The translations under genes were made by a program, and so were the position numbers. 64,000 nt of DNA from an uncultured Fibrobacteraceae bacterium. GTDB lineage: Bacteria; Krumholzibacteriota; Krumholzibacteriia; LZORAL124-64-63. Positions within the stretch are counted from its first letter, which is position 1, and each line of letters opens with the position of its first letter. This document shows, piece by piece, positions 531 to 60,169 of this stretch. Below the pieces are notes generated by a model. That model saw nothing but the letters and a program-made list of their open reading frames with translations. It was not told where the DNA came from and ran no database searches. The DNA is taken from assembly GCA_964549735.1 (NCBI GenBank), contig CAZJWO010000003.1:4829-68828 (forward strand), in the 5' to 3' direction.

Positions 531-935
531 TCAGAGCGACTCGAGCACCCGCTTCAACTTCTCCCGAATCTCGCCCGCAATCTGAACGAGAGCGGGGTTG
601 TCGATCGCCTGCATCGACGAGACCGGGTCGATCGCCGAAACCTCTACCTCCGTTTCGGACAATTCCCGGAGGATGACGTTGCATGGGAGCATCGTCCCGA
701 CCCGAGGTTCGCTCTGCAGGGCCTTGTGCGCGAATGGCGGGTTGCAGGCACCAAGGATCCGGTACGGCGGGAAATCGACATCGAGCTTTTTCTTCAGGGT
801 CCCTCGTACGTCGATCTCGGTGAGAACCCCGAATCCTTCCTTGGCCAGCGCGTCTCGCGTGAGAGCCTCCGCGTCGTCGATCGACATCTTCAACTGTCGG
901 CTGATGTAGTAGCTCATCGAATCATTCCTCTCCAC
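531..935 (-). CDS. DUF302 domain protein
   Basis: 134-aa ORF. The translation (MSYYISRQL...DVRGTLKKKLDVDFPPYRILGACNP...) matches the DUF302 family. It sits in a metal-resistance gene neighbourhood. Confidence 0.75.
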   Translation of the reverse strand: MERNDSMSYYISRQLKMSIDDAEALTRDALAKEGFGVLTEIDVRGTLKKKLDVDFPPYRILGACNPPFAHKALQSEPRVGTMLPCNVILRELSETEVEVSAIDPVSSMQAIDNPALVQIAGEIREKLKRVLESL

Positions 936-953
936 TCGGAAAAAGTCCGGTCG

Positions 954-1502
954 CTAATGGTGGTGGGCATGTTCTCCATGACCGGTTTCGCCCGCCATTT
1001 CACGGTACTGGTCCGGAGTCATGGAGGGTAGGCATTTGACGAATGCCGTGAGGTTCCAAAGCGTCTCGTCGTCATGTGTCGGCCCTAAAGCGGGCATTCC
1101 GGTCATCTTGATCCCATTCTTGATTATCCAGAAGACCTCTCGGGCAGAATGGTCAGAATCCATCTCGGCGAGGTTGGGCGCCGGTGGGTTCAGCCCTAAG
1201 CCAATCTCGCTCCTCTCTAATCCCGGAGCTCCGTGACAAGCCACGCACATCGCCTGGTAGTGCTGGAAGCCCTCGTCGAGATTGGGATCGCTGAAGGACG
1301 GGCTCAATTCAATGTCCGATGCATGACGCCGCACAGAGTTGTCCATCATCGTGGAGAGGATGGACTCGGTCATGGCGTGATGCGGTTTGGTCGCGGCTAC
1401 GTTGTAAGCACCAGATCTTATGGTCACGAGGCCGACGACGGCTGCGATGCCGGCGACGACGACAAGCGTCACCACGACCGGCTTGATTGTTCCGGATTTC
1501 AT
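954..1502 (-). CDS. Membrane-anchored class I c-type cytochrome (CxxCH)
   Basis: N-terminal TM helix (IKPVVVTLVVVAGIAAVVGLV). Single CVACHG haem-binding motif. Confidence 0.7.
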   Translation of the reverse strand: MKSGTIKPVVVTLVVVAGIAAVVGLVTIRSGAYNVAATKPHHAMTESILSTMMDNSVRRHASDIELSPSFSDPNLDEGFQHYQAMCVACHGAPGLERSEIGLGLNPPAPNLAEMDSDHSAREVFWIIKNGIKMTGMPALGPTHDDETLWNLTAFVKCLPSMTPDQYREMAGETGHGEHAHHH

Positions 1503-1540
1503 CTATGGACTCCTTCTTTGCCGTAGCGGGCAACGGTAGG

Positions 1541-3937
<2,397 letters not shown>

Positions 3938-3979
3938 ATCGTGATCTTCCTTCCGGGCAATTGACGAAACCGTGCCGGG

Positions 3980-4738
3980 TCACAGTCGCAAACTGACGAT
4001 CATCGAAAAGCCCCGATCCGGACTGGATGCCGTCGTGCCCTGGGTGTAGAGCGCCAGAACTCCTGTGCGGTTTCCGAGCCTGGCACCCAAACCTGCGGAC
4101 CACTCACCGAACCCCGGGACCCCTTCGACGACCGATCCGCCACGGGCATATGATGCAACAGGATAGAAAGGAACCCCTCGGGGGCGCCAACTCGCTGAGG
4201 CCGCGACGGAGATGCGGCTATTGTATGAGACGCCGACCGGATCTCCCGGACTGAGATAGCCCAGCTCGAGGAAGAGCAGAAAATCACGGACAAGATTGGT
4301 CGTCAGAAAACTGAAACCCCAATCGAACTCACCGCTGCTCAGAGGCGAAGGCTCGTCCGCAAGCGGAATGGTGCCCTTGACCTGTGCCCACCCCCGGCTG
4401 GCAGCCTTCGGGCCGTAGGACGTCCAAAGGCTGCGCCCCAGAGTGAGGTCTATAGTGCCGGCCCCGGACTCGGTGGGCAGACCGGAGCCGGCACCCGGGT
4501 CCCATCGCCACCAACTCACGGCTCCGCGAACGCGCCATCGCGTTCCGGTCTTTCCGACGGCCGTGTAGGAGACCGTGGTTTCGTTCTCGCTGTCATAGCG
4601 ATACAAACTCAGCGTCTGGGAAGCTATGACGGCAGCGGGAACGTCGGACGGAATCATCCCTACTGCCGTGATCAGAAGGCCAACGGTCCATGCGAGCGCC
4701 TTCGGCACGCCGTTGCTACTGACTCCAGTTGACCTCAA
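3980..4738 (-). CDS. Putative outer-membrane beta-barrel protein (CopB-like or transporter-like), signal peptide present
   Basis: N-terminal signal/TM segment. Alternating hydrophobic beta-strand pattern with aromatic residues. C-terminal ...SLRL. It sits between copA and the Met-rich protein. Confidence 0.45.
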   Translation of the reverse strand: MRSTGVSSNGVPKALAWTVGLLITAVGMIPSDVPAAVIASQTLSLYRYDSENETTVSYTAVGKTGTRWRVRGAVSWWRWDPGAGSGLPTESGAGTIDLTLGRSLWTSYGPKAASRGWAQVKGTIPLADEPSPLSSGEFDWGFSFLTTNLVRDFLLFLELGYLSPGDPVGVSYNSRISVAASASWRPRGVPFYPVASYARGGSVVEGVPGFGEWSAGLGARLGNRTGVLALYTQGTTASSPDRGFSMIVSLRL

Positions 4739-5259
4739 TGATTGTGCCCTTCGTGTTCGCTGCCAGTGGACTGGCCGGTCTCGCCACGCATGGCATGCAT
4801 CGCCGTCATCAGGTTCCGGCAGGACTCGACCATCTGGTCCATGTTGGTCATGACGTCCTGCATCTCCGCATGGTGATCGCCGATGGAGGAATCACCACTT
4901 CCCAGATACTCGTGCATGCTCTTCATCATCGACTCCATGTGGGGCATCAGGTTTTCCATTCCGCCTTCCATGTCCTCCATCCAGGAGGCCATGGGACCTA
5001 CGCCCATCTGGCCTGCGTGGCCATGACTCTCCATGCCCACTTGGTCATGGAACTCGCGCATCTGCTGCATCATCTGGGACATGTGGTCCATCATGGTGTC
5101 CATGTGCTCCATCATGCCCGCGTGGTCCTCCATCATGTGCCCGCCGTGCATGTCGCCCTGGCTTCCGCCGTGATCGCCCATTCCGCCGTGCTGGGCCAGA
5201 GCAGGACCCGCGATGAGAGCCGCGGTGGCGATCATCGTACCCAACGTCTTCTTGTTCAT
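4735..5259 (-). CDS. Periplasmic Met/His-rich metal-binding protein (Cu/Ag sponge, PcoE/SilE-like composition)
   Basis: Signal peptide MNKKTLGTMIATAALIAGPALA. The mature part is extremely Met/His/Asp/Glu-rich (HGGMGDHGG, MMEDHAGMMEHMDTMMDHMSQMM, EHEGHNH). Confidence 0.7.
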   Translation of the reverse strand: MNKKTLGTMIATAALIAGPALAQHGGMGDHGGSQGDMHGGHMMEDHAGMMEHMDTMMDHMSQMMQQMREFHDQVGMESHGHAGQMGVGPMASWMEDMEGGMENLMPHMESMMKSMHEYLGSGDSSIGDHHAEMQDVMTNMDQMVESCRNLMTAMHAMRGETGQSTGSEHEGHNH

Positions 5260-5284
5260 GACAGACTCCTCGGGTTGGTTGTTT

Positions 5285-5773
5285 CTAGTGCTTCGTTTCT
5301 GCCTGCGGCACGAATTGGCCGCAGCGCAACATCTTTGACCCGTAGTACGGATTGGAGATCTCGTCGCCCGTCTGGAGCCAGTGCTTCTTGGCCATCGAGC
5401 AGTAGGCGACCTTGACGTTTCCCTCGGGGATCAGATCGTAGGAATCGACGAGGATCTCGCTGAGATCTCCGAACGCGAGGCGGGCTCCCTGAAGGTCCTT
5501 GGCACCTGCAAGAGTCCCTGCAGCCGCGGCGAGACCCGCGGTGCGACTCTTGGTCCCGGCGCAACACGCGCCCTTTTGATCATCGCCAGCGCCGGTCAGG
5601 ATTTGCTCTATCGCCATGGCGTGTTCGCCAACTTCCTCCAGCGAATCACCGGCCAGTGCCGCTTGGATCGCCAGGTAGTGTTCCGCAAGTTCTGGTGTTG
5701 CTGCCGATGCCGGTATCGAAACCAGCGATGCGGCGACGACCAGAATCCCCAGTCCCAACAGTTTCTTTTTCAT
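5285..5773 (-). CDS. Periplasmic DUF3347-like protein (copper-resistance associated)
   Basis: Signal peptide MKKKLLGLGILVVAASLVSIPASA. ~140-aa mature domain with CC pair and conserved C/M. Typical neighbour of copA/cus genes. Confidence 0.6.
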   Translation of the reverse strand: MKKKLLGLGILVVAASLVSIPASAATPELAEHYLAIQAALAGDSLEEVGEHAMAIEQILTGAGDDQKGACCAGTKSRTAGLAAAAGTLAGAKDLQGARLAFGDLSEILVDSYDLIPEGNVKVAYCSMAKKHWLQTGDEISNPYYGSKMLRCGQFVPQAETKH

Positions 5774-5890
5774 GGTTGACTCCTTTGCTTCGTAAACTCG
5801 AGTGGTTGTTTGATGAGCCTTAATGCATCATCTGTGCCACGGATAATACATTGTAATTATTGCGCTTACGTGGACGAGGTTTGGGGCGGT

Positions 5891-5934
5891 GGAGAATATT
5901 CTCCAATCCGCGGCCGGGCGGTGTAGAGAATTCT
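5891..5934. promoter_or_regulatory. Two related palindromic sites (GGAGAATATTCTCC 14-bp perfect palindrome; AGAGAATTCT) in the cop-prophage intergenic region
   Basis: Perfect dyad at 5891-5904. A related AGAATTCT dyad is ~22 bp downstream. The region lies upstream of the minus-strand DUF3347 gene start and upstream of the integrase module. Confidence 0.35.
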
Positions 5935-6092
5935 TTATTGGTCAGGTTTGGAGTCGCGCCTGCGGGGCGAGGTCCGACCATAACCGGAAGCCGGATAGGC
6001 GAGACCTGGGAATCGGATCTGATTCTAGAAACCGGCTGGGCTTGATTCGACTGACACTTCGATGGGTCCCCGGGTAGGTAAACACCAGAGGT

Positions 6093-6329
6093 GTGACCGC
6101 TACCCGGAGACGACCGATGCCCCGATCGATTACCGATGAACTGACTCCCACCCAACGCCGCAAGGAGATCGCCGCAATCCTTGGCCGCGGTCTGCACCGC
6201 CTCGACAGTGCACGCGGGAACCAGCCGGCTGCATGCGATTCCTCGCCCGGTTCCACGGGCCAGAAAGCCCTTGATGTGTCCGCGCCCGGCGACCCTCATG
6301 TGTCCCGGTTAGCTGAACCGAGATCATGA
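6093..6329 (+). CDS. Small hypothetical basic protein (possible HTH / excisionase-like)
   Basis: 78-aa ORF immediately upstream of the DUF2924-recombinase pair. Basic, ...TPTQRRKEIAAILGRGLHRL.... Weak support. Confidence 0.25.
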   Translation: MTATRRRPMPRSITDELTPTQRRKEIAAILGRGLHRLDSARGNQPAACDSSPGSTGQKALDVSAPGDPHVSRLAEPRS

Positions 6330-6342
6330 GAGGAGATGCACC

Positions 6343-6832
6343 ATGGCATTGAACATCGGGAAAGAGATCACCGCGCTGAAGCGCATGACCGTGCCAGAAC
6401 TGAGGCGGAAGTACGCCCATGTGTTCGGTGAAGACACGACATCCCGGCACAAGGAGTACTTGATCCGCCGCATCGTCTGGCGTCTCCAGGTGAACCAGGA
6501 CGGCGGCCTGTCCGAACGAGCACGGCTGCGGGCCAGAGAACTGGCCGCTGATTCTGACGTCCGTTTGACCGCCCCGCGTCCTCGCCCGATCGCACCTGGC
6601 GGCGAGATGACCACCGCGCCCATCGAGTTCCCCCAGGACGACCGCCTGCCGATGCCCGGCGCGATCATCACGCGCCAGTACAAGAGCCAGACGGTCGCGG
6701 TGCGGGTCCTGCCGCGGGGATTCGAGTACGAGGGCGAGGTGTACCGGACCTTGAGTGCGGTGGCCAAGAAGGTCACCGGCACCCACTGGAACGGCTTCAA
6801 CTTCTTCAAGTTGGGCCGGGCAGGGGGCACCG

Positions 6833-6843
<11 letters not shown>
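6343..6843 (+). CDS. DUF2924 family protein (typical partner encoded upstream of large serine recombinases)
   Basis: 166 aa. Its stop overlaps the recombinase start (ATGGCCGGTAG). Gene pair arrangement. Confidence 0.65.
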
Positions 6844-8382
<1,539 letters not shown>

Positions 8383-8386
<4 letters not shown>

Positions 8387-8793
8387 CCCGGCCATTAAAG
8401 ATCACCAAGGCTGTCCATTTCCGGAGCATGAGGAAGGGGCGGAAGGAACTCAGAGAAGGTGTGGAGGAATCACCTCCGACGCTCGGCAGCGTGCCGCGCG
8501 TGTCGCGGTTGCTCGCCCTGGCCCTCCACATGGACGAGCTGCGCCGCCGTGGCGAGGTCACCGACTACGCCGAACTGGCCCGCCTGGCCATGGTGACCCG
8601 GGCAAGGATGACCCAGATCATGAGCCTGCTGCTGCTCGCGCCTGATATCCAAGAGGAGATCCTGTTCCTGCCCCGGTCCGACGGCGGCCGCGACCCGATC
8701 CGGGAGAAGGCGGTCCGGCCCATCGCCTCGGTGCCCGACTGGCGGAAGCAGCGGGTCATGTGGCGGGACCTTGTGCTGAATACCGAAATCTGA
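8383..8793 (+). CDS. Small HTH-containing protein coupled to the recombinase (possible regulator or RDF)
   Basis: Start overlaps the recombinase stop. Predicted HTH (DYAELARLAMVTRARMTQIMSLL). Confidence 0.45.
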
Positions 8794-8921
8794 TATTCAT
8801 ACGATTGCTCATATAGCCTGGCAACTCGCCCACCAGGGTACACGGACGCTTCTCGCTGGCGGAAACGTCGGCAGAGCGTCCTATATCTGTTTGTACGCTC
8901 TCAGGCAGGGAAGGAGCCTCG

Positions 8922-10094
8922 ATGCCTCAATTCAATCCCAAGCGAGTCCTTCGACAGACCAGCAACGCTCTGCTGAAGGAGTTTTTTGAACAGCAGAATT
9001 TGCATACACAGATTTCATGGGATCAACTGCGGGAAACCCAGGTTGATGAGGTGTTCCGTGCCCTGCAGGCGATCCCTGACGATCCGCGAGAGAAGATCGA
9101 GGTTGTCCTACAAGACCTGGATGACGTCGCGAATGAAGATGGCGTTCAGGTGATGATCGAGGAAGCCTTGTTCCGAGGCGTGGACATCGCCGACGACCTG
9201 GAGGCAATGGACAGCCGGTTCGACAAGGCGATGTGGGTTCTGCTTCGGTACCCGGATATCTGGAAAGCGGCATCGATGTTCGCCCGTGCTGACGATCTTT
9301 CGTCTGGTCGCTCATGGCGGCGGCGCTGTGATCTGCCGACGGTCAACCCCAACGTAGACGGTGATCACAGGGCGAAACTTGAGAATGCTCTGTCCGCGTT
9401 CTATCGGGAGCGTCAGGGCCGGGGACATCACTGCCACGTCGACCACTTCCTCCGCGGCGGCAAGCAGCACTACTTCTTCGTCTACCTCAGCGACTATGCC
9501 GGTACGCATATCAACTTTGACGACAGCGGTCAATTTCGGCGATCCCCGGAGCGTCGAGCATTCGAGGTGGTCTTCGCCTTTGAGCAGGATTCGGGAACAC
9601 TCGAGATGTTCGCCAAAGGCGGAATCAAGGTTGTGGAACCGCTTCAGCAGATCTTCAGCCGAGTGATTCTCGGCGAGTCGCTGCCCCCAGAAAACCCGAA
9701 GGCGAAGCCCTATAAGCTCGATCACCTGATGAAACGGGGGACGGGGTTTCCGACAGATCCCGAGGACGGCATCAGGGAAGTGTCCATCCGCCGCATGCGG
9801 CTCTCGGTTGTTGGGAATCGCCGCCGCCGGTTGTTGCTTGAGCCCGATGCTGAAGACGGCCCCGATGCAGTCTACGACATGCTCGAGGAGGACCTCAATC
9901 GGCAGATGCTCCCGCGGTCAATTCTCCACGTCACCAAGGTGACGTTCCGGTTCTTGTTCGACGGGCAGGGACGCCGGAAGTCCCTGACATTTGACGTGAC
10001 GTACCCCAACTCATGCAACTTGAAGAGCAAGAGGGAGGAACATCGGTTGCTCGGTGAGAAGTACCTCAAGAGGTTTGGGATCGATGTCACCTGA
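8922..10094 (+). CDS. Unknown protein A (390 aa) of a two-gene low-GC cassette
   Basis: Good-length ORF with an RBS-like GGAAGGAG upstream. GC is ~55% versus ~67% in flanking DNA. No recognisable domain. His/Cys cluster HHCHVDHF. Confidence 0.6.
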   Translation: MPQFNPKRVLRQTSNALLKEFFEQQNLHTQISWDQLRETQVDEVFRALQAIPDDPREKIEVVLQDLDDVANEDGVQVMIEEALFRGVDIADDLEAMDSRFDKAMWVLLRYPDIWKAASMFARADDLSSGRSWRRRCDLPTVNPNVDGDHRAKLENALSAFYRERQGRGHHCHVDHFLRGGKQHYFFVYLSDYAGTHINFDDSGQFRRSPERRAFEVVFAFEQDSGTLEMFAKGGIKVVEPLQQIFSRVILGESLPPENPKAKPYKLDHLMKRGTGFPTDPEDGIREVSIRRMRLSVVGNRRRRLLLEPDAEDGPDAVYDMLEEDLNRQMLPRSILHVTKVTFRFLFDGQGRRKSLTFDVTYPNSCNLKSKREEHRLLGEKYLKRFGIDVT

Positions 10095-11025: not shown

Positions 11026-11201
11026 ATTCACTTGTGCTCGTTATCTGCAACTGCAACCCCGATAAGTGCGCATGTAACCGACTGTGACGTAAAGACATAA
11101 GAATAAATCCATAGAATCCCGCCTATTTGCTGCAACTCCTCCGGAGGGTGAAGGGCCGTGCACGACGCGCAGCCCCATCACCCAACCCGCGAGGAGACAC
11201 A

Positions 11202-11528
11202 ATGCAGCTTGCAGTCAAGTCTCAACTAACTCCCAGCCAGGTCCAACTGGTCGAGCTGATGCAGCGTATCGCGTTCGGCGCAATCGAGGATCTCGTCATC
11301 TGTGACGGAACGCCGGTGTTCGACCCGCACCCCCGTGTAATCCGAGATGTGAAATTCGGCGGTAGCAATGGCCCGCGCCCGGAAGCGGATCTCTCGGATT
11401 TCTCCCTGAAGTCAAGTGTCCAGGAGCTCATGGCCGTTCTCTCCGCCCTCGGCAACGCAACCGTGCGCCGCCTCGAGGTCAAGCACGGCCTGCCCTTCCG
11501 GATGCAGGTGGAGGAGGTCGCTGCCTAA
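11202..11528 (+). CDS. Hypothetical phage early protein
   Basis: ORF starting MQLAVKSQLTPSQVQLVELMQRIAFG.... Preceded by an AT-richer region with CTGCAAC repeats. Confidence 0.4.
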   Translation: MQLAVKSQLTPSQVQLVELMQRIAFGAIEDLVICDGTPVFDPHPRVIRDVKFGGSNGPRPEADLSDFSLKSSVQELMAVLSALGNATVRRLEVKHGLPFRMQVEEVAA

Positions 11529-11713
11529 GACAAGGGGCCGGCCGCCCCAACGCAATCCCTGACTAATCGTCACCAGACATTCAACCGGCCACGAGGTGGA
11601 GGTGCATGTGGGTGTCGCCGTAACGGCGAACCACGTGCGCTTCCACCGCGCCGGTCTATGCGCTGCCTCGTGCGACACCTTCGCGCCTCTCCGCGGCCTC
11701 AGGAGAGGTTCCG

Positions 11714-49067: not shown

Positions 49068-49081
49068 CCCTTCGTGCCCGG

Positions 49082-51061: not shown

Positions 51062-51090
51062 GCACCCAGTAGTGATGCATCCGCGAAAGG

Positions 51091-51123
51091 CCGACCAATC
51101 TAAATGTCATTTAGATTGGTCGG
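51091..51123. promoter_or_regulatory. Perfect 33-bp palindrome CCGACCAATCTAAATG-T-CATTTAGATTGGTCGG between divergent capsid and portal-side genes
   Basis: Seen directly. 16-bp perfect arms. Confidence 0.6.
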
Positions 51124-51151
51124 CTCGTTAGCGCGGTGTCACCGTGGGCGC

Positions 51152-51709
51152 ATGGCACAGGAACTCGCATACCTCCCCGATCAGTTCGCGGCCGGGACCA
51201 CCGTCTGCTATCGCAGGCGGCTGACGGATTACCCTGCATCCGCCGGTTGGACGCTCCAGGTCCACCTGGCCGGCGCGAGCGTGCTCGCCAAGACGGCCGC
51301 CGCCGATGGCGACGACTTCATCGTCACGATCGAGGCCACGGACACCGAGGCCGACTTCGCCGCCGGGCTGTACAAGTGGGTCGAGCGGGTCTCGAACGCG
51401 GGCGGCGAGGTCTACGAGGTGGGCCGCGGCTCCGTCACGATCCTGCCCAACCTGGCCGAGGCCTCCGAGGGCAGCGAGCAGGAGTGGATCGAGAGGGCGA
51501 TCGCCATGCTGCGGGCCCACATCGAGGGCCGGCTGCCGGCCGGCATGGAGAGCTACCAGATCGCCGGGCGTGTGGTGGCGAAGATGCCGATCCGGGAGGC
51601 TGTCAGCCTCCTGTCCAGCCTCGAGTCCCGCCTGGCTGGTCTGCAGAAGCCGGGATTCGTCACCCGACCCGTGCTCGTGTCGTTCACCAAGCCCGGGTTC
51701 GAGCGATGA
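51152..51709 (+). CDS. Phage protein upstream of portal
   Basis: Start MAQELAYLPDQ. Stop overlaps the portal start (ATGA). Confidence 0.45.
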   Translation: MAQELAYLPDQFAAGTTVCYRRRLTDYPASAGWTLQVHLAGASVLAKTAAADGDDFIVTIEATDTEADFAAGLYKWVERVSNAGGEVYEVGRGSVTILPNLAEASEGSEQEWIERAIAMLRAHIEGRLPAGMESYQIAGRVVAKMPIREAVSLLSSLESRLAGLQKPGFVTRPVLVSFTKPGFER

Positions 51710-53238
51710 AGCGGCCGCTGCACAAGCGTCTCGGGCGGGCGGTCCGACTCGCCTGGCGCGAACTCCGCGGCCAGCGAGGCGTGTTCGACGGGGCGGGAGT
51801 CCACCGGTTGCTCCTGGACTGGATCGCCCAGACCCGGTCTGCGGACGAAGAAGTCCGCGGCGACATCCGCATGCTGCGGGCCCGCGCCCGCGAGCTCGGC
51901 CGCAACAACAGCTACGTCAAACGCTACTTCCGCCTGCTGGTGAACAACGTGATCGGGCCCATGGGGATCAAGCTGCAGGCCCAGGTCTGGGCCGGGGAAC
52001 AGCCCGACTCCAAGGCCAACGCCGCGATCGAAGAGGCGTGGAACGCCTGGGCCAATGCTCCGGTGACGGTCGACGGTCGGCTCACGCTGCGCCGATTCGA
52101 GAAGGTGATCCTCAAGACCATGGCCTGCGACGGCGAGGCCTTCGTCCGTCTGTGGCGGGGGTTCGAGGGCAACGCCCATGGCCTGGCCCTGCAGGCGATC
52201 GATGCCGACCTGATCGACGAGACTCTCAACCGCCCTCGTCGCGGAACGCAGAACGAGATCCGTATGGGCGTGGAGATCGACGCCATCGGGAGGGCGGTCG
52301 GATTCTGGGTGTGGGATTCGGTCGGCACGGACCTGTTGCGCGAGCGGTACTTCGTCCCGGCCGCGGAAATGCTCCACCTCTACGACCCCGAGCGCGTGAA
52401 CCAGACCAGGGGCGTGACGTGGGTGCACTCGGTCATGGTGCCGGCGCACATGCTGAACGCCTACGAGGAGTCGGAGGCGGTCGCGGCCAGGATCGGGGCC
52501 TCGAAGATGGGGCTGTTCGAGAAGCGAAGCGATTCGCTGGCCGGCGACCTGGCCAGCGATCCCAAGCCCGCGACCATGGAGGCCAACCCCGGGACGTTCG
52601 AGATTGTCCCCGATGGCTACGAGTTCAAGGCCTGGGAGCCGGATCACCCGACGGCTCAGTTCCCGGCGTTCATCAAGCAGATGCTCCGGAAGATCGCCTC
52701 CGGGTTCAGCGTCTTCTACAACGTCCTGGCCAACGACGCCGAGGGCGTCAGCTACTCCACGATGCGGAGCTTTGCCTTGGTGGAGCGCGACGATTGGCGC
52801 TCCATCCAGCAGGACTTCATCGACATGTGGCGGCGGCCGCTGTACGCGGCCTGGCTCGGCATGGCGCTGCTGACTGGCAGCCTGAAGCTCGGCTCCCGCG
52901 ATCCCTCCCGCTACATGGCGGTCCGACACCGTCCTCGGGGTTGGCAGTGGATCGATCCCGAGAAAGAGGCGAAGGCCGCCGTGCTCTCGATTCAGAACGG
53001 CCTGGGGACGAGGACCGGGTTCCTGGCGGAGAAGGGCGAGGACATCGAGGACGTCTTTGCCGAGTTGGCCCGGGAGCAGGATCTGGCCAAGGAGTACGGG
53101 TTGTCGATCTCCGGGGCAACAGCGGCGACGAGCGAGCCGGCGGAGGATCAACCCAAGGACGCCGAGGGTGACGAGGAAGAGATTGACGAGGACCAGGCCG
53201 AAGTCGAAGACGAGGAAACGGAGTCGGCGACTCGATGA
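51706..53238 (+). CDS. Phage portal protein, lambda (gpB) family, with acidic C-terminus
   Basis: ...NNSYVKRYFRLLVNNVIGPMGIKLQ.... C-terminal DEEEIDEDQAEVEDEE. Confidence 0.8.
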   Translation: MKRPLHKRLGRAVRLAWRELRGQRGVFDGAGVHRLLLDWIAQTRSADEEVRGDIRMLRARARELGRNNSYVKRYFRLLVNNVIGPMGIKLQAQVWAGEQPDSKANAAIEEAWNAWANAPVTVDGRLTLRRFEKVILKTMACDGEAFVRLWRGFEGNAHGLALQAIDADLIDETLNRPRRGTQNEIRMGVEIDAIGRAVGFWVWDSVGTDLLRERYFVPAAEMLHLYDPERVNQTRGVTWVHSVMVPAHMLNAYEESEAVAARIGASKMGLFEKRSDSLAGDLASDPKPATMEANPGTFEIVPDGYEFKAWEPDHPTAQFPAFIKQMLRKIASGFSVFYNVLANDAEGVSYSTMRSFALVERDDWRSIQQDFIDMWRRPLYAAWLGMALLTGSLKLGSRDPSRYMAVRHRPRGWQWIDPEKEAKAAVLSIQNGLGTRTGFLAEKGEDIEDVFAELAREQDLAKEYGLSISGATAATSEPAEDQPKDAEGDEEEIDEDQAEVEDEETESATR

Positions 53239-53296
53239 GTGATCTACAAAGCCCGATGGATGCCCCAAGCAAGGGGCGGAACGGAGAGGTTGGAAC

Positions 53297-53674
53297 GTGA
53301 GAACGATGGTCATCTGCTCGGTGCTGCTGGTCCTGGCTGCGGCACTGTTCCCTCTGCTCGGCAAGGCCGCACAGGACGGCACGGTCGCCGAAGCCACCGG
53401 GTTTGTGCCGTTCTATGGTACCGGACCGGTGGGATCGAAAAAGGCGCACATCCTCGACATGTACGCGTTGCCCGACCTGGGGACGGTCTACATGTCGTTC
53501 TGGGTCTACGACGACGCTGCCGAGATCTGGTCCCGGCTCAAGCCGAAGGCGGCGCTGGGGGACACAATCTTCCCTCTGAGAGAGGGACTACCGGTCCGCT
53601 TCATCTTCGAGCCGAACGCGCCGGACGCGGTCTATCTCTCGGGAGATGGCCGGGCGGACCTGATGTGGGAGTGA
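53297..53674 (+). CDS. Secreted small hypothetical protein (signal peptide)
   Basis: MRTMVICSVLLVLAAALFPLLGKAAQ. Confidence 0.45.
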   Translation: MRTMVICSVLLVLAAALFPLLGKAAQDGTVAEATGFVPFYGTGPVGSKKAHILDMYALPDLGTVYMSFWVYDDAAEIWSRLKPKAALGDTIFPLREGLPVRFIFEPNAPDAVYLSGDGRADLMWE

Positions 53675-53680
53675 TTCGCC

Positions 53681-54172
53681 ATGCGTAGCCGATCCTGCAT
53701 CGTGATCATCCTCTGGCTGGTGGCGGCTCCCATTGGTGCCTGGGCCCAGTACGGCGGAGAAGTGCACAACGGTGGTTGGGCCAATGGCACCGGCGTGCTC
53801 TTGCCACCGCGGACTCCAGTCGAGGCGCCCGATCCGGTCCTACTGGTCCTCCTGCCGCAGACGTCCTTCACAGCCGGCGGCACCAACGCGTTCGCCTACA
53901 TCTTCATGAACGCTCCGCTGTCGGAGGCCAGAGCCAGGATACGGATCGTCCGCGTCAGCGATTCGGTGGTCGTGGGGACCGGCAATTGGACGTCGACATC
54001 GACCAACCGGACTCTGGTATCCGGCCTGGTGGTCGGGGAGACCTACCGGGTCGATGTGGAACTCGAGGCCCTGACACAAGCGTGGCTGAGCGTGCCCTGG
54101 TACACCCTGATCGCCTCCTACGTGCAGCCGAGCAAATTCGATCCGCCGTTCGATTGGGACCTGCAAGGGTGA
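53681..54172 (+). CDS. Secreted hypothetical protein (signal peptide)
   Basis: MRSRSCIVIILWLVAAPIGAWAQ. Confidence 0.45.
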   Translation: MRSRSCIVIILWLVAAPIGAWAQYGGEVHNGGWANGTGVLLPPRTPVEAPDPVLLVLLPQTSFTAGGTNAFAYIFMNAPLSEARARIRIVRVSDSVVVGTGNWTSTSTNRTLVSGLVVGETYRVDVELEALTQAWLSVPWYTLIASYVQPSKFDPPFDWDLQG

Positions 54173-54182
54173 AAGGCAGTCG

Positions 54183-54542
54183 ATGGAACTGACGTTGGAA
54201 GTGGCCCGCAGCTTGGGGCTCGGAGGGCTCGGATTGATGGCGACGATGCTGGCCGTGAGGTTGGCCATCCAGACCGTCGACCTCGCGCGGACCCAGCTGT
54301 GGCGACGGAACGGAAACAACGGGACGAAGGTCGCCTTCGACGAACTGAAGGTCGTCTGCCCGCTGGCTCCGGGACGCCACTCCCTGGACGACGTGCACGA
54401 GGTGCTCGTCCAGATCCAGTCGGGCATGGAGCGGCTCAACGAGACCCAGAAGGTGATCGAGTCGGACATGAAGGACCGCAGCCAGCGGCTGTGCGACATC
54501 CTCGGGGCCCTGCGCCTCGAACTGGCCCGAAGGGAGGGCTGA
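54183..54542 (+). CDS. Hypothetical membrane protein adjacent to lysis genes
   Basis: N-terminal TM (LGGLGLMATMLAV). Stop abuts the endolysin start. Confidence 0.4.
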   Translation: MELTLEVARSLGLGGLGLMATMLAVRLAIQTVDLARTQLWRRNGNNGTKVAFDELKVVCPLAPGRHSLDDVHEVLVQIQSGMERLNETQKVIESDMKDRSQRLCDILGALRLELARREG

Positions 54543-54543
54543 C

Positions 54544-55038
54544 GTGACCAGCAGAGAACTCTTCGACCGAGCGATCGAGGTCGTCCTCGAGCACGAGGGA
54601 GAGGCATACACCGACAACCCGCTCGACCGGGGCGGGCCGACCAAGTTCGGGATTGCCCAGCGGTGGAATCCGGATCTGGACGTGGCGAGCCTCACGCGAG
54701 AGCAAGCGATCGAGGTCTACTGGGAGAGGTACTGGCACGGACACCGGTACGAGTTCCTGCCCGAGGCGATCGCCATCAAGGTGTTTGATCTGGCTGTCAA
54801 CCTGGGGAACCGAACGGCAGTGAAGTGTCTCCAGCGGGCGCTACAGGCTTGCGACCTGCGGGTCGTGATCGACGGTCTCTTGGGCACCGAAAGCTGTGGG
54901 GCTGCAAGACAAGCTGATCAGAAGGCTCTGATGGCGGCATTAAGGTCCGAGGCTGCTGGCGAATACCGGCTCCTTGTGGCTCGGCACTCGGACCAGATCG
55001 TGTTCCAGGGCGGTTGGCTTAACCGCGCGTACGCCTGA
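54544..55038 (+). CDS. Endolysin, glycoside hydrolase family 108 with C-terminal peptidoglycan-binding domain
   Basis: EHEGEAYTDNPLDRGGPTKFGIAQ (GH108 signature with catalytic Glu), ...YWERYW.... Confidence 0.75.
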   Translation: MTSRELFDRAIEVVLEHEGEAYTDNPLDRGGPTKFGIAQRWNPDLDVASLTREQAIEVYWERYWHGHRYEFLPEAIAIKVFDLAVNLGNRTAVKCLQRALQACDLRVVIDGLLGTESCGAARQADQKALMAALRSEAAGEYRLLVARHSDQIVFQGGWLNRAYA

Positions 55039-55049
55039 GAGGAGACCAC

Positions 55050-55454
55050 ATGGTAGGAGAAATCCTGGGCATTTTGGGGAAGGTTGCCGGCGGAGTCGCT
55101 GACCGCCTTTTCCCGGACCCGGAGCAGGAACTGAAACGGATCGAGCTGCAGCAGGCGCTGCAGGCGGCGGTCCTGGAACGGACCTCTGAGATCGAACGGG
55201 CGGCCGCGGAGGTCGTCAAGGCCGAGGCGCAGGGCCAGAGCTGGCTCCAGCGGACCTGGCGGCCGATCACCATGTTGGTCTTTGTCGGGTTGATCGTGGC
55301 CCGATGGCTGGGATGGTCGGCACCGAATTTGCCCGAGGCTGAGGCGCTCAAACTCTGGAGCATTGTTGAAATCGGCCTCGGTGGCTACGTTATCGGCCGA
55401 TCTGCTGAAAAGACCCTTCCGGGCCTCATTCAGGCGATGAAGAAAGGCGATTGA
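55050..55454 (+). CDS. Putative holin
   Basis: 134 aa, hydrophobic N-terminus plus a TM helix (ITMLVFVGLIVARWLGW). Directly follows the endolysin. Confidence 0.5.
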   Translation: MVGEILGILGKVAGGVADRLFPDPEQELKRIELQQALQAAVLERTSEIERAAAEVVKAEAQGQSWLQRTWRPITMLVFVGLIVARWLGWSAPNLPEAEALKLWSIVEIGLGGYVIGRSAEKTLPGLIQAMKKGD

Positions 55455-55640
55455 TCAATACCATGCAATGCTGCTAGGCATTTAGGGGGCGGGCGGCACT
55501 GCACGATGTCGGAGGATCGCACGCCACGCAGGCGTCGACCTGCACGTGCCGTGTATTCTGTTTTAATATAATCAGTTACAAAACATTTTGCCGAAAATGA
55601 GACTACGCTAGGACGGCATAAATTAGGCGAAAAAAAACTT

Positions 55641-55680
55641 GTGAATGCACCAGAATGGTGTAAAGTGGTGCACCCTAGGA
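55641..55680. promoter_or_regulatory. Clustered short palindromes (GCACCA-gaa-TGGTG; GGTGCACC) upstream of the RHH gene (C-box-like operator)
   Basis: Seen in the AT-rich region immediately 5' of the RHH/MTase operon. Confidence 0.35.
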
Positions 55681-55687
55681 GGGTGCT

Positions 55688-55900
55688 ATGGCGAGAAAGA
55701 GAAAGCGGCCTGATCCAGGCATGTCCCGCGCGTCCGTGAGCTTACCTGTGGAAGACTACGCGGAGATCGAGCGTATAGCACAGCAGAACCGCGTGTCTAT
55801 CGCATGGGTGATCCGAGAGGCAGTCACTCAGTACCTAGCGGAGAGGAGTCCGCTTTTTCGCGCCTCCGAGATTGCTCGCACACACCAAGGCGGCCAATAG
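55688..55900 (+). CDS. Ribbon-helix-helix (CopG/Arc-type) small DNA-binding protein, possible R-M controller
   Basis: ...RASVSLPVEDYAEIERIAQQNRVSIAWVIREAVTQYL... = RHH. Confidence 0.55.
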   Translation: MARKRKRPDPGMSRASVSLPVEDYAEIERIAQQNRVSIAWVIREAVTQYLAERSPLFRASEIARTHQGGQ

Positions 55901-58130
55901 GGCAGGCCGTATCCTGCAGATTTTGGATTCAAGCAAGGGAGTGCCTTCAAGAATGGGCCCAGGAACGACACTAAGTGCAGCTACCGAAACCCGGGCTCGC
56001 CATATCAGGCGTGCGGTTTTGCTACTGCAGCGAGGCCTGAAAGACCAAGCCATTGCCAAGTCGTTCAAGAGTCAATTCGGACCACGGTGGCAGTCGTCTA
56101 TCCAGGTTGATGTCGACATACCTAGTCGAGCCGCGTGGGCGTTGGTCACGAGTCGAATCGTAGGCCGGCTGACTGGGGGGCTTGGTTGCACTGCAAACCT
56201 CCAAGACACCGAAGCCTGGTTCTTGGGTCCGTTGGCGGGCCATGTAGATTCTCTTGCAAGGCAAATCTCGGCGTCGACAGATAAGTTTGTCTGCGAGGAG
56301 ATGGAGCGAATCCGATTCGACCAGGAGTTATCGGACCTGCTGCCCTATGTGTTGGAAATACACGGTCCCGGCAGTCGGGCGAGTGTCATGCGTGACCCGA
56401 GTACTCGAGTTGCCCGAGACACGAAACGTACTAATGGAGTTTTCTACACGCCGCCAGATGTAGCGAAATACATGGCGAGGGTGGCTCTGAACGGGCCGTC
56501 CTTTCGCAACCAGGGTTCGCGCTGCCTAGACCCGGCCTGTGGGACGGGCGTCTTCCTTCGCGCGGTGTTGAATGATAGTTCGGTCAAGCAGAAGGAGTCT
56601 TTCCAGTTTGCGTTGGACTCCCTTTTCGGAATCGATATTTCTCCGCATGCAGTTGAATCTGCATGCTTCGTTCTACTCCACGACTTGCTTCAGCGATGCA
56701 GGCCCATGCAAGTAGATCCGTGGTCTGTGTGGCATGCACTCAGACTTAATTTTGCCGTAGCTGATTCGACCGAGCTCGTGCCGCCATCTGGCGATCAATC
56801 TAGGTCTGCTGATGTCAGAAAAGAGGTTCAGCAAGAGCTCATCCAGGGGAAAGCTCTTCATGCGGCAGAGGGTGGTCCAGACACCTTGAACCTTGATCGT
56901 GGTTCGTCTCTCTTCAATGGAACTCGAAGACTAGATGGGCTCTTTCCTGACGTATTCGAGGGCTTCGATGTACTCATCTGCAATCCGCCGTATGCTCAAA
57001 TTGCGCGTAGGGGTTCTGTCGATAGTTCGTTCCCAGAATACGAGTGCCTGCGTTCTGGTGTGGGCCCATCTGGCAATCTGTATCCGCTCTTCATTGAGAT
57101 GACTTGGCGTTTCACGCGTCCAACGCACTCGTCTTCGGCGCTCGTTGTTCCCCTGTCAATCGCCTACCATCGCGGGCGGCAGTTTGTAGAGTGTCGAAAA
57201 GCTATGGTGAATAAAGGCGGCGCGTGGAAGTTCGCGTTTTTCGATCGTGAACCTCATGCTCTATTTGGAGAGGACGTAAAGACCCGCAACGCTATCATCT
57301 TCCGAAATGAACGATCTGGGGACAGACCGCGAGGGGACTCATCTGCGGTATACAGTGGGCCTCTGCGGAGATGGACAAGCAGAACTCGGCAAGAACTCTT
57401 TGAATCCATTGATTTCACCCGACTGCCTACTTCCGACATTGGGGAAGGGATACCCAAAATCGGGGGAGAGGAGCAAACAAGAACTCTCGGGGTTCTGAGG
57501 GGCCTCTCCCAGCGCTTGCGTACTAGTTGGGTGACGGCTGGCTCCTGTCTGCCAGAAGAAACTTTTTGTGAGCAATTCGAGCCAGTCGTCTATGTCGCCG
57601 GGACAGCGTATAACTTCTTGAATGTCTTCAGGCCCCAGGCTACGAGAACCTGTGGCGATCGGGTTATGAGCCAAAGTCGCGTGGCTCGCCTACAGTTCTC
57701 TGATGAGAATGATGCGTCGGCCGTATTCGCGATTCTAAGTAGCCGATTCGTGTTTTGGATGTGGCACGTTTATGGCGACGGTTTTCATGTGCCGCGGTGG
57801 TTTTTAGAGGGAATTCCCTTCGACAGGACTAGCTTTACGTCCCAACAGCGAAGACAATTGTCTGGGCTGGGCACGGTACTTTGGAAGGAGCTTCAGCACC
57901 ACACTGTTGTAAGTGTGAATGGTGGTCGTACGACGATCGCCTATCGCCCACTCGCCTGCGATTCGATTCGAGCCAAGATCGACAGGGTTCTGATTGAGGC
58001 CGCGGGCGTCGATATTTCGTTTCAAGAGCATCTTGGTCGCTTCATTCGCGACGTAGTTGTCGTTGATGAGGCCGATGAACGCCGGGCATCGCTTTGGCCA
58101 GGTCTTTCCCGGCAGGAGGCCGCAACATGA
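55872..58130 (+). CDS. N6-adenine DNA methyltransferase, gamma-class (FxGxG then NPPY), Eco57I/TaqI-like with large C-terminal TRD
   Basis: GVFYTPPDVAKYM; LDPACGTGVFL; DVLICNPPYAQ. Alternative start at 55953. Confidence 0.8.
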   Translation: MLAHTKAANRAGRILQILDSSKGVPSRMGPGTTLSAATETRARHIRRAVLLLQRGLKDQAIAKSFKSQFGPRWQSSIQVDVDIPSRAAWALVTSRIVGRLTGGLGCTANLQDTEAWFLGPLAGHVDSLARQISASTDKFVCEEMERIRFDQELSDLLPYVLEIHGPGSRASVMRDPSTRVARDTKRTNGVFYTPPDVAKYMARVALNGPSFRNQGSRCLDPACGTGVFLRAVLNDSSVKQKESFQFALDSLFGIDISPHAVESACFVLLHDLLQRCRPMQVDPWSVWHALRLNFAVADSTELVPPSGDQSRSADVRKEVQQELIQGKALHAAEGGPDTLNLDRGSSLFNGTRRLDGLFPDVFEGFDVLICNPPYAQIARRGSVDSSFPEYECLRSGVGPSGNLYPLFIEMTWRFTRPTHSSSALVVPLSIAYHRGRQFVECRKAMVNKGGAWKFAFFDREPHALFGEDVKTRNAIIFRNERSGDRPRGDSSAVYSGPLRRWTSRTRQELFESIDFTRLPTSDIGEGIPKIGGEEQTRTLGVLRGLSQRLRTSWVTAGSCLPEETFCEQFEPVVYVAGTAYNFLNVFRPQATRTCGDRVMSQSRVARLQFSDENDASAVFAILSSRFVFWMWHVYGDGFHVPRWFLEGIPFDRTSFTSQQRRQLSGLGTVLWKELQHHTVVSVNGGRTTIAYRPLACDSIRAKIDRVLIEAAGVDISFQEHLGRFIRDVVVVDEADERRASLWPGLSRQEAAT

Positions 58131-58990
58131 CCGTAAAAACGAGCGTGGACATTAAGGAAAAGAGCAAGGTCACCAAAGAAGAGTGGCGGGAGTTTACTAA
58201 GACGGTTTGGCACATTGCCAACACAAGCCATGAGAAACACCCCGCTGTTTTTCCTCGGGAGATCCCGCATCGATTGGTGAAGATGTTCACTTTTTACGGT
58301 GAGACCGTCCTTGATCCTTTTGCTGGGACGGGTACGACGGCAGCAGCGGCGATTCCATTGGGGCGGCGTGCGGTTTGTGTCGATCAAAGCCAGAAGTACA
58401 TCAAGATCATTGAGAGTGAGTGTGGGGGGCTGCGCAATGGGCATCCCGAAGATGAGAAGCCGCTGATGGCCGTGCGGGCAGACAGCCGCAAGCTGCAGTT
58501 CATCGAAGACGATTCCATTGGCCTTGTGGTGACCAGCCCTCCGTACTGGAACAAGGCCGACTATGGGAAGGGGCGAGCCAATCTCGGCAACATTCCGAGC
58601 TATGTTCGCTTCATCGAAGAAACTCGGCCCGTTTTTGAGGAGTGCTATCGAGTTCTCAGGCCCGGCAGGAAGATCTGCCTCGTAACCGCGAACGTTAACC
58701 AACACACTGATCATGGACTCCTGACGTTCCCCCTCGCGACGGATTTCGGCGTACTACTGCGCGACATCGGCTTTGTGATGATCAACGAGATCATCTGGTC
58801 GAAGGACGGAACGGGCGGAAAGTGGGGGTCCTATGGCCAGCAGCGGCCGATTTTTGGGAGCTACCCGTACCCTCCCAACTTCCTATTCAAGAATGTACAC
58901 GAGTATGTTCTTATTTTCGCGAAGCCCAACGGAAAGAAGGTTCGCGGTCCCAAGGCGCTGCCCTATGATCAGATCATGGAACGCGAATGA
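58094..58990 (+). CDS. Second SAM-dependent DNA methyltransferase (motifs DPFAGTGTT and SPPY)
   Basis: VLDPFAGTGTTAAAA...LVVTSPPYWNKADY...LRPGRKICL. Confidence 0.7.
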   Translation: MARSFPAGGRNMTVKTSVDIKEKSKVTKEEWREFTKTVWHIANTSHEKHPAVFPREIPHRLVKMFTFYGETVLDPFAGTGTTAAAAIPLGRRAVCVDQSQKYIKIIESECGGLRNGHPEDEKPLMAVRADSRKLQFIEDDSIGLVVTSPPYWNKADYGKGRANLGNIPSYVRFIEETRPVFEECYRVLRPGRKICLVTANVNQHTDHGLLTFPLATDFGVLLRDIGFVMINEIIWSKDGTGGKWGSYGQQRPIFGSYPYPPNFLFKNVHEYVLIFAKPNGKKVRGPKALPYDQIMERE

Positions 58991-59002
58991 TCGACAGTGC
59001 GA

Positions 59003-60169
59003 TCAAATAAACCTGTACCAGGTTGAATGGTCCGGATCACTTGGCTTTGTCAGTACAGTCTGCGTTGGTGTTGCATTGATCCCGTCTTCTAGAGATTCGA
59101 GGATCGCTTTGCCTTGTGGTGAATCGCCGTCATAAGCATAGTACCGGATCCCGTCTACAGACCGTTCAAGACGAATCACGGGAACCGCCATCCCTCTTGT
59201 TTCGGGTATCTCGAGTTTGTACGTGTTGACCTGGCCGCCGGCACGTTCTGGATGAGTTGCGCTAATAGCACGTCGCTGATCATCATGAGAGCTCGTAACT
59301 GCGTCTTCTCCCGTAAAAAAGGCACAGTTTCTCAAGGGAATCGGTATCTGAATCTGGGTCCCACGCGCTGGGCGGACCCGCATAATCAATACGTTCGTGA
59401 TAGTAACCGGGTCATTGCCCCGAGTCGACAGTGTTCCTGAGACAGTGGGGCGTGCAGTCCTACTGCTAGGTTCTTCGTCCTCGGCACGCCCGGTGGCGCG
59501 GCCTTCGGGTGGAGCTGGGGCGGGAACAACCTTCGATTGGAACAAGCGCGTTCGTCGCCGGCCACCGGTGGTTCCTCGGGTTGTAGTGCGACTCGAAATT
59601 CTACGGCGAGAAAGTTCTCGCTCGCTAAAAATATAGCCCTCGTTTTGAAGCTCTTGAAGCAGCGCGTTATCGAGGATTCGCGCCAAGCCGTTCTCGACGT
59701 CAGCCCAGCTGTCAATCGCGGCGAGCGCATCCAAAACCAGGTCGTCGTTTGAACCAAGATCGATCTGAAGACTTGCTTCGGTATTCGTAAAGAGACCTGG
59801 CTCGGTAATGTTGTTGGAGCCGACGATTAGGCGCGCGTCATTATCCGCACGGAGAAGGTAGAGTTTCGGGTGAAAGGTAGGACTTGCTTCGTTGTGGCAA
59901 ATGGTGGTCCGGCAGTCTCCGAGTTGTTCAAGTGACAGCAAATCGGATAGTCCTTCAACCGACGTGTTTTCAATGTCAATGCCCACCCCGAAGCGAACGC
60001 GGCCCCCGGATTGAACAAAGCCACGAAGGGCAGGGAGTAGGTGCCTAGTTCCTGACCGTCTGACCCAGGCGACAGCTACATCAAGGGAGTTCCAATGGCC
60101 GCTCGAAATGAATTCAATTAGCGCCGTACCAAGTCTATGCGTAGAAGCTTGATTATACAGAATGGCCAT
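59003..60169 (-). CDS. Phospholipase-D (HKD) family restriction endonuclease (NgoFVII/BfiI-like)
   Basis: FHPKLYLLRADNDARLIVGSNNIT (HxK...D...GSxN HKD motif). Convergent with the two MTases. Lowest GC in the window. Confidence 0.6.
   Translation of the reverse strand: MAILYNQASTHRLGTALIEFISSGHWNSLDVAVAWVRRSGTRHLLPALRGFVQSGGRVRFGVGIDIENTSVEGLSDLLSLEQLGDCRTTICHNEASPTFHPKLYLLRADNDARLIVGSNNITEPGLFTNTEASLQIDLGSNDDLVLDALAAIDSWADVENGLARILDNALLQELQNEGYIFSERELSRRRISSRTTTRGTTGGRRRTRLFQSKVVPAPAPPEGRATGRAEDEEPSSRTARPTVSGTLSTRGNDPVTITNVLIMRVRPARGTQIQIPIPLRNCAFFTGEDAVTSSHDDQRRAISATHPERAGGQVNTYKLEIPETRGMAVPVIRLERSVDGIRYYAYDGDSPQGKAILESLEDGINATPTQTVLTKPSDPDHSTWYRFI

Follow-up and report, generated by a model that had tools for sequence, protein, structure and literature searches.

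Temperate phages that carry metal-resistance genes have been described before. Siphovirus-type prophages of Paracoccus carry genes for ZntA, for a copper ATPase plus a multicopper oxidase, for the cation diffusion facilitator (CDF) ZitB, for ArsB and for AcrAB, with ArsB inserted among structural genes (Decewicz et al. 2019, PMC6536676), and a lysogenic viral contig from chromium-contaminated soil is reported to encode a heavy-metal resistance-nodulation-division (RND) outer-membrane protein together with a Co/Zn/Cd RND transporter (Huang et al. 2021, PMC8240259). Here, we analyzed a 64,000-nucleotide stretch (the window) of contig CAZJWO010000003.1 from an uncultured Fibrobacteraceae bacterium (assembly GCA_964549735.1). 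Positions ~211–60432 of the window probably constitute one temperate siphovirus, inserted at the 3' end of a tRNA-Asn locus, with metal and restriction-modification (R-M) cargo aboard. Whereas each Paracoccus prophage carries one module or a few genes according to the text of that paper, three modules and a complete heavy-metal efflux (HME) RND pump are present here, in an unrelated phage lineage. Likewise, the soil contig was annotated at the contig level with neither boundaries nor an attachment (att) site, whereas the slot, its flanks, cargo-free relatives and recurrence are documented for the present element. A first-pass annotation of the window had called such cargo uncommon for prophages, which is overstated, as ZntA, CopA, ZitB, ArsB and HME-RND genes had already been published (PMC6536676, PMC8240259); its view of the phage as a vehicle for heavy-metal genes is supported and strengthened.

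The open reading frame (ORF) map was guided by GC3, and the proteins were scanned against Pfam, NCBIfam and PADLOC. The block bracketed by a direct repeat spans 60.2 kb and corresponds to one integrated phage genome with three metal-ion modules (copper, mer-like and czc) and an R-M cassette. Its conserved core amounts to 36.7 kb, and exchangeable cargo, located at five fixed sites, makes up 23.2 kb (39%); the metal-gene load is 15.5 kb, or 26% of the phage genome, spread over three hot spots. The phage gene set assigned by Pfam is complete, with TerS/TerL, portal, protease-capsid, tape measure, J, endolysin and holin, a replication module (genes 11127–19080, the primase-polymerase gene being the last), and DUF2924 plus a large serine recombinase. 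The hallmarks of a tailed phage are thereby all represented, namely terminase, portal, HK97-type capsid with protease, tape measure/tail and lysis genes. The core ORFs are intact and of full length compared with those of relatives, and share 80–100% amino acid identity with viral contigs of IMG/VR, with synteny kept. There is no close cultured phage in the GenBank phage collection, where the best TerL identity is below 48%; IMG/VR is rich in relatives, with TerL identities of up to 98%.

Nucleotide comparison with these relatives and other related loci (designated by L numbers) delimits core blocks at 6053–8771, 11248–19340, 20819–27102 and 35891–55448, with 82–92% identity. They alternate with five non-homologous segments, 497–6052, 8772–11247, 19341–20818, 27103–35890 and 55449–60395, whose edges fall at gene boundaries. 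Core homology starts at 6053 and ends at 55415–55448. Within it, homology to L001 ends at 19340 and restarts at 20819, and homology to L003 and L028 ends at ~27100 and restarts at 35891. The second cargo slot, occupied by the mer-like operon in the window, measures only 25 bp between the same flanks in L001 and 29 bp in L274 and L275, and slot 1, which houses the czc genes, holds 0.3–3.1 kb of other genes in relatives. Their left-end segment contains Mrr and a helicase, or other genes. At the cargo sites, the IMG/VR relatives carry mostly R-M/defence genes and a few ion transporters, and no copper, mer or czc module was found in slots 1 or 2 of those compared. The GC content follows the same partition: the core has 65.6–67.1%, and every cargo segment is 3–13 points lower (copper 62.1%, the 8.8–11.2 kb cassette 57.2%, mer-like 61.4%, czc 62.7%, R-M 54.4%); the DNA to the right of the block has 51.5%. 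The GC steps of the first-pass annotation are thus real, with slightly different figures. The scenario it had named as contrary to a phage vehicle, metal genes at the same loci without any phage genes, is the converse of what is seen, as the same loci in close phage relatives are devoid of these metal genes, and the nearest czc homologues lie in non-phage contexts.

The boundaries of the block are defined by a diverged direct repeat at 211–500 and 60423–60711, already suspected from the letters alone, whose copies are 74–80% identical and both begin with GGGGAGCCAA. Both were recovered by nhmmer (E = 5e-86 and 4e-93, respectively) with a profile built from ten copies, including the two window copies. 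The profile detects no further copy inside the block, and elsewhere in the window it finds only a 60-nucleotide (nt) fragment at 60860–60920. The motif formed by the phage arm and the core occurs only once, at 60414–60432, and ARAGORN finds no tRNA in the window.

Other junctions were found by scanning a genome collection with a motif from inside the repeat. In L175, L177 and L183, an intact tRNA-Asn(GTT) is followed by the core and by a repeat of the right-copy type, and these junctions are either attB-like or the attL of related prophages; L175 is itself occupied by a related element, because an orf159-like sequence lies ~4 kb downstream of its repeat. An attP-type junction is present in L176, where the P arm and core are followed by a repeat of the left-copy type and by DUF302-CopA genes (87–90% nt identity). 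The unit thus combines a recombinase with junctions expected as recombination products, of the attP type in L176 and L069 and of the attB type in L175, L177 and L183. Contig L270 (DRR835045) is identical to the window (100%) from position 211 rightwards, whereas the 20 nt preceding that position belong to another arm, which places the left boundary at position 211. The 52-kb IMG/VR contig 3300010429_002739 (L029, L069 and L147) shows the gene order of the window circularly permuted and has one repeat copy: it runs from the portal to the holin, through 12.5 kb of cargo including a type III restriction enzyme, to the phage arm and the repeat, and continues with Mrr, a RecD-like helicase, orf159 and the recombinase, followed by the replication module, TerL and J. 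At full length it is estimated to measure ~60.3 kb, compared with the 60.2 kb of the window phage.

With the ends of the unit thus placed at the repeat cores, both terminal cargo segments, copper and R-M, are part of the phage genome. The first-pass annotation had assigned two of the three metal systems to a prophage, correctly for those two, but all three, the copper cluster included, are within the att-bounded genome; nor is the R-M cassette merely appended, as it had proposed, since it occupies a hot spot shared across the family within the same boundaries. From the sequence of the junctions, crossover is predicted to occur in or next to the 10-bp core GGGGAGCCAA, most likely by the large serine recombinase, which is the only recombinase in the unit. 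Like the integrases of phiC31, Bxb1 and phiRv1, this protein combines Resolvase, Recombinase and Zn_ribbon_recom domains and is the sole recombinase of a temperate phage; unlike in those systems, the target is the 3' end of a tRNA and a conserved sequence of ~290 nt lies beside the core. Such a tRNA target and conserved sequence beside the core are more typical of tyrosine-integrase islands.

A different history, in which a ~10.5-kb tRNA-Asn island with the copper and R-M genes came first and a ~49-kb phage inserted into it later, leaving only czc and mer as phage cargo, is considered improbable. The terminal segments do deviate most in composition, especially the R-M segment with 54.4% GC, but no second att pair or cryptic repeat was found at 6053 or 55448. 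Small repeat-bounded elements exist, for example a 6.2-kb unit in JADJQR010000001.1, and the serine recombinase gene is located 6 kb from attL; yet the succession of repeat, cargo, orf159 and recombinase recurs with other cargo in L069 (and in L175 as far as orf159), the layout of holin, cargo and P arm recurs in the IMG/VR contig of L069, and L176 joins the P arm directly to the copper cluster. Such a history would require the same nesting to have occurred independently in several relatives with different cargo.

The czc cargo recurs in the same slot with 96–98% nt identity across 21914–37810 in at least five independent assemblies (L274–L278). The exact CDF1 sequence is indexed in about 30 public-assembly blocks; the five places shown are L274–L278, which include a 33-kb JGI contig and an 81-kb ENA contig and share a common gene order around the slot. 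The two longest, L274 and L275, present the full order J, orf173, czcCBA, P-II, CDF2, CDF1, orf100, orf221, methyltransferase, TerS and TerL; they are also the only two of the five that span slot 2, and both are without the mer-like module. This recurrence indicates that czc has been inherited through 2–4% divergence of a phage sublineage from several samples. On the same sequence comparison, the mer-like operon is a separate gain, probably later than czc.

These data bear on whether the arrangement could be an artefact of assembly or binning, in which metagenome misassembly joined metal operons to a phage, a possibility that we regard as barely worth entertaining. While the window matches metagenome-derived assemblies only, and the assignment of related loci to several phyla shows that binning is unreliable, the junctions are repeated in independent assemblies (J-orf173-czc-orf100-methyltransferase in L274–L278; copper cluster to repeat in L269, L270 and L271; holin through R-M to attR in L273), and the breakpoints lie at gene boundaries with no shared repeats there. 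Logan contigs reproduce the copper/attL and holin/R-M/attR junctions at 99.96–100% identity, by which a chimera is ruled out. A look-up of the holin returned the same contig only, and exact-protein look-ups of CopA, orf779, orf173 and the thioredoxin-like protein of the mer-like operon returned no match, for which the start codons chosen may be wrong.

In a lysogen, the cargo genes would act in lysogenic conversion, being expressed from the prophage and conferring metal efflux, and they would be packaged along with the phage. For inducibility and packaging, intact ORFs, a relative of about equal estimated size and the second junction context in L270 provide only indirect support. Alternatively, the element could be a single unit that has been domesticated as a cryptic prophage, no longer inducible or packageable, with the metal genes fixed in the host, which seems unlikely, if less so than the nested history. 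A load of 39% cargo in 60.2 kb could strain the capsid, yet a relative reaches an estimated ~60.3 kb with different cargo. The flanks are decayed, with half a tRNA at attL and an intron fragment past attR; the core ORFs, by contrast, are all intact and of full length, the same left end is found in the second junction context of L270, and the czc-bearing lineage is present in many samples with 2–4% divergence and its phage context intact. As a separate observation, the near coincidence of ~60.3 and 60.2 kb with wholly different cargo hints at a packaging limit; it involves two genomes, one of them with an extrapolated length.

Several points weigh against an active single phage endowed with functional metal cargo. 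This reading is built on sequence, and inducibility, packaging, expression, metal specificity and a resistance phenotype are predicted properties. No truly empty site was recovered in the scan, whose pattern lay within the repeat. The permuted contig 3300010429_002739 could also derive from two tandem prophages, and the right-hand repeat may be part of a neighboring element instead of the host. As attL has only a degenerate half tRNA, the array probably does not begin with this prophage. To our knowledge, large serine recombinases are usually not targeted to tRNA genes. As to the cargo, neither the cop nor the czc genes are accompanied by a metal-responsive regulator; the cytoplasmic C-terminal (ZT_dimer) domain is missing from CDF1; and the MerR and MerTP scores are under the equivalog cut-offs. 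Finally, slot 2 contains no ORF for MerA and no oxidoreductase match was obtained among the window genes scanned, and mercury resistance can therefore not be claimed for the mer-like module.

Table 1. Coordinates of the features of the integrated element and its cargo in the 64,000-nt window.
Feature	Position	Strand	Remarks
attL, B arm	169-219	+	Degenerate 3' half of tRNA-Asn(GTT), anticodon loop to CCA; aligned with intact tRNA-Asn of L175, L177, L183
attL, core and element	211-500	+	Core GGGGAGCCAA 211-220 plus phage-borne copy of ~290-nt element; contains terminator-like hairpin
Copper cargo	531-5773	-	Cluster not homologous to left-end DNA of relatives
DUF302	531-935	-	Pfam/NCBIfam
Membrane-anchored cytochrome c	954-1502	-	His-rich tail
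CopA P1B-1 ATPase	1541-3937	-	YHS aa 29-73, HMBD aa 100-126 (CPMH...CPKC), CPC aa 443
252-aa protein	3980-4738	-	No family given; 2 Met, 0 His
Met/His-rich protein	4735-5259	-	33 Met and 18 His in 174 aa
DUF3347-like protein	5285-5773	-	Weak match, 20.5 bits vs cut-off 25.5
orf159	5820-6299	-	Only 6053-6299 conserved among relatives
DUF2924	6343-6843	+	Integration module
Large serine recombinase	6755-8386	+	Integration module; Resolvase, Recombinase, Zn_ribbon_recom
Cargo slot 3	8772-11247	+	orf390 8922-10094, orf323 10054-11025; 57.2% GC
Early/replication core	11248-19340	+	orf133, sigma-like protein, PD-(D/E)XK nuclease, AAA_24, RusA, helicase, primase-polymerase; 84-91% nt vs L001, L069
Cargo slot 2, mer-like operon	19341-20818	-	Segment is exactly this operon, in convergent gap of replication and packaging modules
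MerT-HMA fusion	19345-19980	-	
Thioredoxin-like 'DF family' protein	19977-20318	-	
MerR	20279-20710	-	
MerR-type promoter	-35 TTGACC 20740-20735	-	Perfect 7-bp dyad CCCTGTA/TACAGGG, spacer 19-20 nt
Phage core	20819-27102	-	Four small ORFs, TerL, TerS-like, ParB-methyltransferase, orf221, orf100
TerL, gpA-type	22110-23960	-	
TerS-like	23944-24507	-	
ParB-methyltransferase	24511-26007	-	
orf221 and orf100	26136-27100	-	
Cargo slot 1	27103-35890	-	Exactly from J stop codon to orf100 start codon; adjoins tail gene J downstream
CDF1	27206-27811	-	201 aa
CDF2	27872-28777	-	
P-II	28808-29146	-	
CusA/CzcA-family RND pump (CzcA)	29143-32265	-	TIGR00914 1101 bits vs 701 cut-off, full length
Adaptor	32287-33408	-	HlyD_D23
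Outer-membrane factor	33263-34654	-	OEP domain
Met/His-rich lipoprotein orf173	35205-35726	-	Upstream of pump genes
Structural core	35891-51061	-	J, hub, distal tail proteins, tape measure, head-tail proteins, protease-capsid; 92% nt vs L144
Host-specificity protein J	35891-38584	-	
Tape measure	43545-46103	-	
Protease-capsid fusion	49082-51061	-	
Phage core	51104-55454	+	Divergent from capsid gene; portal, three small ORFs, endolysin, holin
Portal	51136/51706-53238	+	
GH108 endolysin	54544-55038	+	
Holin	55050-55454	+	
Right-end cargo	55449-60395	mixed	54.4% GC
RHH protein	55688-55900	+	
Eco57I-like methyltransferase	55872/55953-58130	+	
N4/N6 methyltransferase	58094/58127-58990	+	
PLD-like putative nuclease	59003-60169	-	Weak match, E = 0.0017
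attR	60396-60711	+	P arm 60396-60422 ending GTTACGTCC, core GGGGAGCCAA 60423-60432, second ~290-nt element copy

The genes that the first-pass annotation had named in the copper, mer-like, RND/CDF/P-II and R-M groups are all present by Pfam and NCBIfam, with small corrections. In the copper cluster, the Met/His-rich protein is encoded at 4735–5259 instead of 3980–4738, and the DUF3347 match is weak. CopA scores 589.7 bits against TIGR01511 (cut-off 397) and has the attributes of a copper-exporting P1B-1 ATPase. By analogy with its family it would export Cu(I), and binding or handling of copper is a plausible role for its periplasmic or membrane partners, namely the cytochrome c, the Met/His-rich protein, DUF302 and the DUF3347-like protein.

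The czc genes form a tripartite HME-RND system, consisting of the permease with the adaptor and outer-membrane factor in one operon. Among NCBIfam models, the adaptor scores best against IhpB and the outer-membrane factor against IhpA, in each case under the equivalog cut-off. The adaptor fits divalent-type models better than CusB, and the composition of the upstream Met/His-rich lipoprotein could point to Cu/Ag for the pump. As known for these families, metal cations would be captured by the RND pump in the periplasm or cytoplasm and expelled across the outer membrane; export out of the cytoplasm would be the task of the CDF proteins. The exact CDF1 sequence is nonetheless kept in ~30 assembly blocks, despite the missing domain. 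The set of outer-membrane factor, adaptor, RND pump and CDF exporters resembles czcCBA and czcD of Cupriavidus metallidurans CH34, from which it differs in having no czcRS, czcN or czcI regulatory gene and in the P-II gene that follows the pump. A P-II gene directly after the pump is also found in environmental homologues. The nearest CzcA homologues outside the phage share 84–85% amino acid identity and belong to czcCBA-PII operons whose retrieved flanks contain no phage genes, and the IMG/VR search yielded no close CzcA relative. Because the nearest homologues occur in non-phage contexts, the data fit a capture of czc from a cellular genome.

In the mer-like module, MerR scores 143.9 bits against TIGR02051 (cut-off 150.85), and the ZntR and CueR models, whose cut-offs are likewise narrowly missed, score nearly as high. 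Its cysteines are at positions 88, 123 and 132, a spacing that we take to match C82/C117/C126 of Tn501 MerR. The module shares with the mer operons of Tn501 and Tn21 a MerR-family regulator with a C-x35-C-x8-C pattern, a dyad promoter with a 19–20-nt spacer, and MerT-like and MerP/HMA-like domains. By contrast with these operons, the module has none of MerA, MerB and MerD; merR points the same way as the transport genes, whereas the transposon operons are divergent; MerT and HMA are fused; and the DF-family protein is encoded between merR and the transporter gene. The module had been annotated as MerR, a thioredoxin-like protein and a MerT-MerP fusion, all of which are present, but without MerA it cannot be called a mercury-resistance operon. 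With a promoter of its own, the operon is probably self-regulated, and from its gene content it is best described as a metal-sensing uptake/handling operon.

The right-end cassette has two clear methyltransferases, a weak nuclease match (E = 0.0017) and weak type IIG matches. Since the post-holin region of eight relatives mostly contains R-M/defence genes (HsdM, ResIII, Mrr, XamI, GmrSD, Eco57I), the cassette occupies a family-wide hot spot. In slot 3, neither orf390 nor orf323 received a Pfam or PADLOC assignment. Many distant viral contigs encode such a pair, with 29–42% amino acid identity, beside genes for DUF2924 and a serine recombinase, and at the metagenome locus L255 an orf390 homologue (54% identity) is located near czc and CopA genes, with no orf323 match listed. 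Two further cases of ion transporters were observed at related loci. In the distant relative L085, a P1B-type ATPase (634–2814) is immediately upstream of DUF2924 and the recombinase, and in L003 a Na+/H+ exchanger with a TrkA_C domain (4766–6259) occupies slot 1.

The family has an unusual genome plan, in which the portal is divergent from the protease-capsid gene and, on the circular map, the early region and the att site separate TerL from the portal. An inversion or two prophage remnants at the portal/capsid junction were dismissed, because the same order is present in every IMG/VR relative covering that junction, and the layout is therefore the normal architecture of the family. Related loci have been binned to Krumholzibacteriia, Thermoanaerobaculales and unclassified metagenome-assembled genomes (MAGs); short contigs are possibly misbinned.

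The ~290-nt element next to the att core is kept at 75–92% identity in 14 or more copies, which come from various MAGs and viral contigs (L069, L171–L187). It includes a terminator-like hairpin at 60476–60500 and a nearly invariant TGGCAACGGATTGCGCGG. Several interpretations of the repeat were tried and rejected. ARAGORN and Rfam searches for a permuted tmRNA or another known RNA were empty, even at E <= 1. A structured RNA is not supported by ten copies (covariation -1.6 kcal/mol, 4/62 compensatory pairs), a weak test given that the copies are very similar. A sigma-54 promoter (TGGCAA-N4-TTGC) was dropped as the spacing is one base under consensus. Finally, the repeat and P arm do not correspond to an ORF-less group II intron, as the 5' GUGYG is unconserved and the only intron sequence is a domain V/VI fragment. 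That fragment, at 60787–60861 (+) just past attR, matches RF00029 with 45.7 bits, above the gathering score, and neither an intron 5' end nor a reverse-transcriptase ORF was found near it.

The flanks contain traces of further elements. The second element copy at attR is either host DNA or part of the next element in a tandem array. Beyond it, the 60-nt stretch at 60860–60920 is a partial third copy, 93% like the left (phage) copy and closer to it than to the adjacent right copy, and L183 has a homologous stretch after its tRNA-Asn. The left neighbor is an AAA_14/DUF4143 ATPase gene with its stop codon at 167–169 (identified through L269, 2235–3395), and a 55-amino-acid fragment of the left flank gave no informative match. 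The sequence of this flank (1–219) points to a further element upstream, inserted in that tRNA locus. An array of this kind is found in the 4.7-Mb MAG contig JADJQR010000001.1 (L187, L181, L172), where three direct copies of the att element at 428087, 468553 and 474763 indicate tandem elements of ~40.5 kb and 6.2 kb at one locus. On the right, region 60715–64000 has a tetranucleotide correlation of r = 0.36 to the phage core and encodes a 757–779-aa protein with a weak C-terminal sorting domain of the type IX secretion system (T9SS); judged by these features, it is probably foreign DNA too, and hints at an FCB-group host.

Prophage-borne metal genes are a known and published phenomenon, and the locus reveals no new mechanism. 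What is unusual is the distribution of the load over three hot spots, the complete three-component pump, the resolved boundaries, and the existence of cargo-free and partly loaded sisters. If the phage is active, a host would receive in one infection the copper ATPase cluster, the three-component pump and its two CDF exporters, the metal-sensing transport operon and the R-M genes, and the element would be a boundary-resolved example of viruses spreading metal tolerance. The sister phages, with czc and without mer or without both, differ in nothing but cargo and represent a natural experiment on the gain of cargo at hot spots and on whether capsid capacity limits it. A broader interpretation, which we put forward tentatively, is that the family constitutes a cargo platform of fixed capacity, with a ~37-kb core and five hot spots that always fill to ~60 kb, usually with R-M/defence genes, and that this sublineage has been filled repeatedly and independently with metal systems, czc first, the mer-like operon later and the copper cluster at the att end. 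The ~290-nt element may then contribute functionally to a serine-recombinase site that targets tRNA genes. If this interpretation holds, the phage would rank as a major vehicle by which metal tolerance circulates in its environment.

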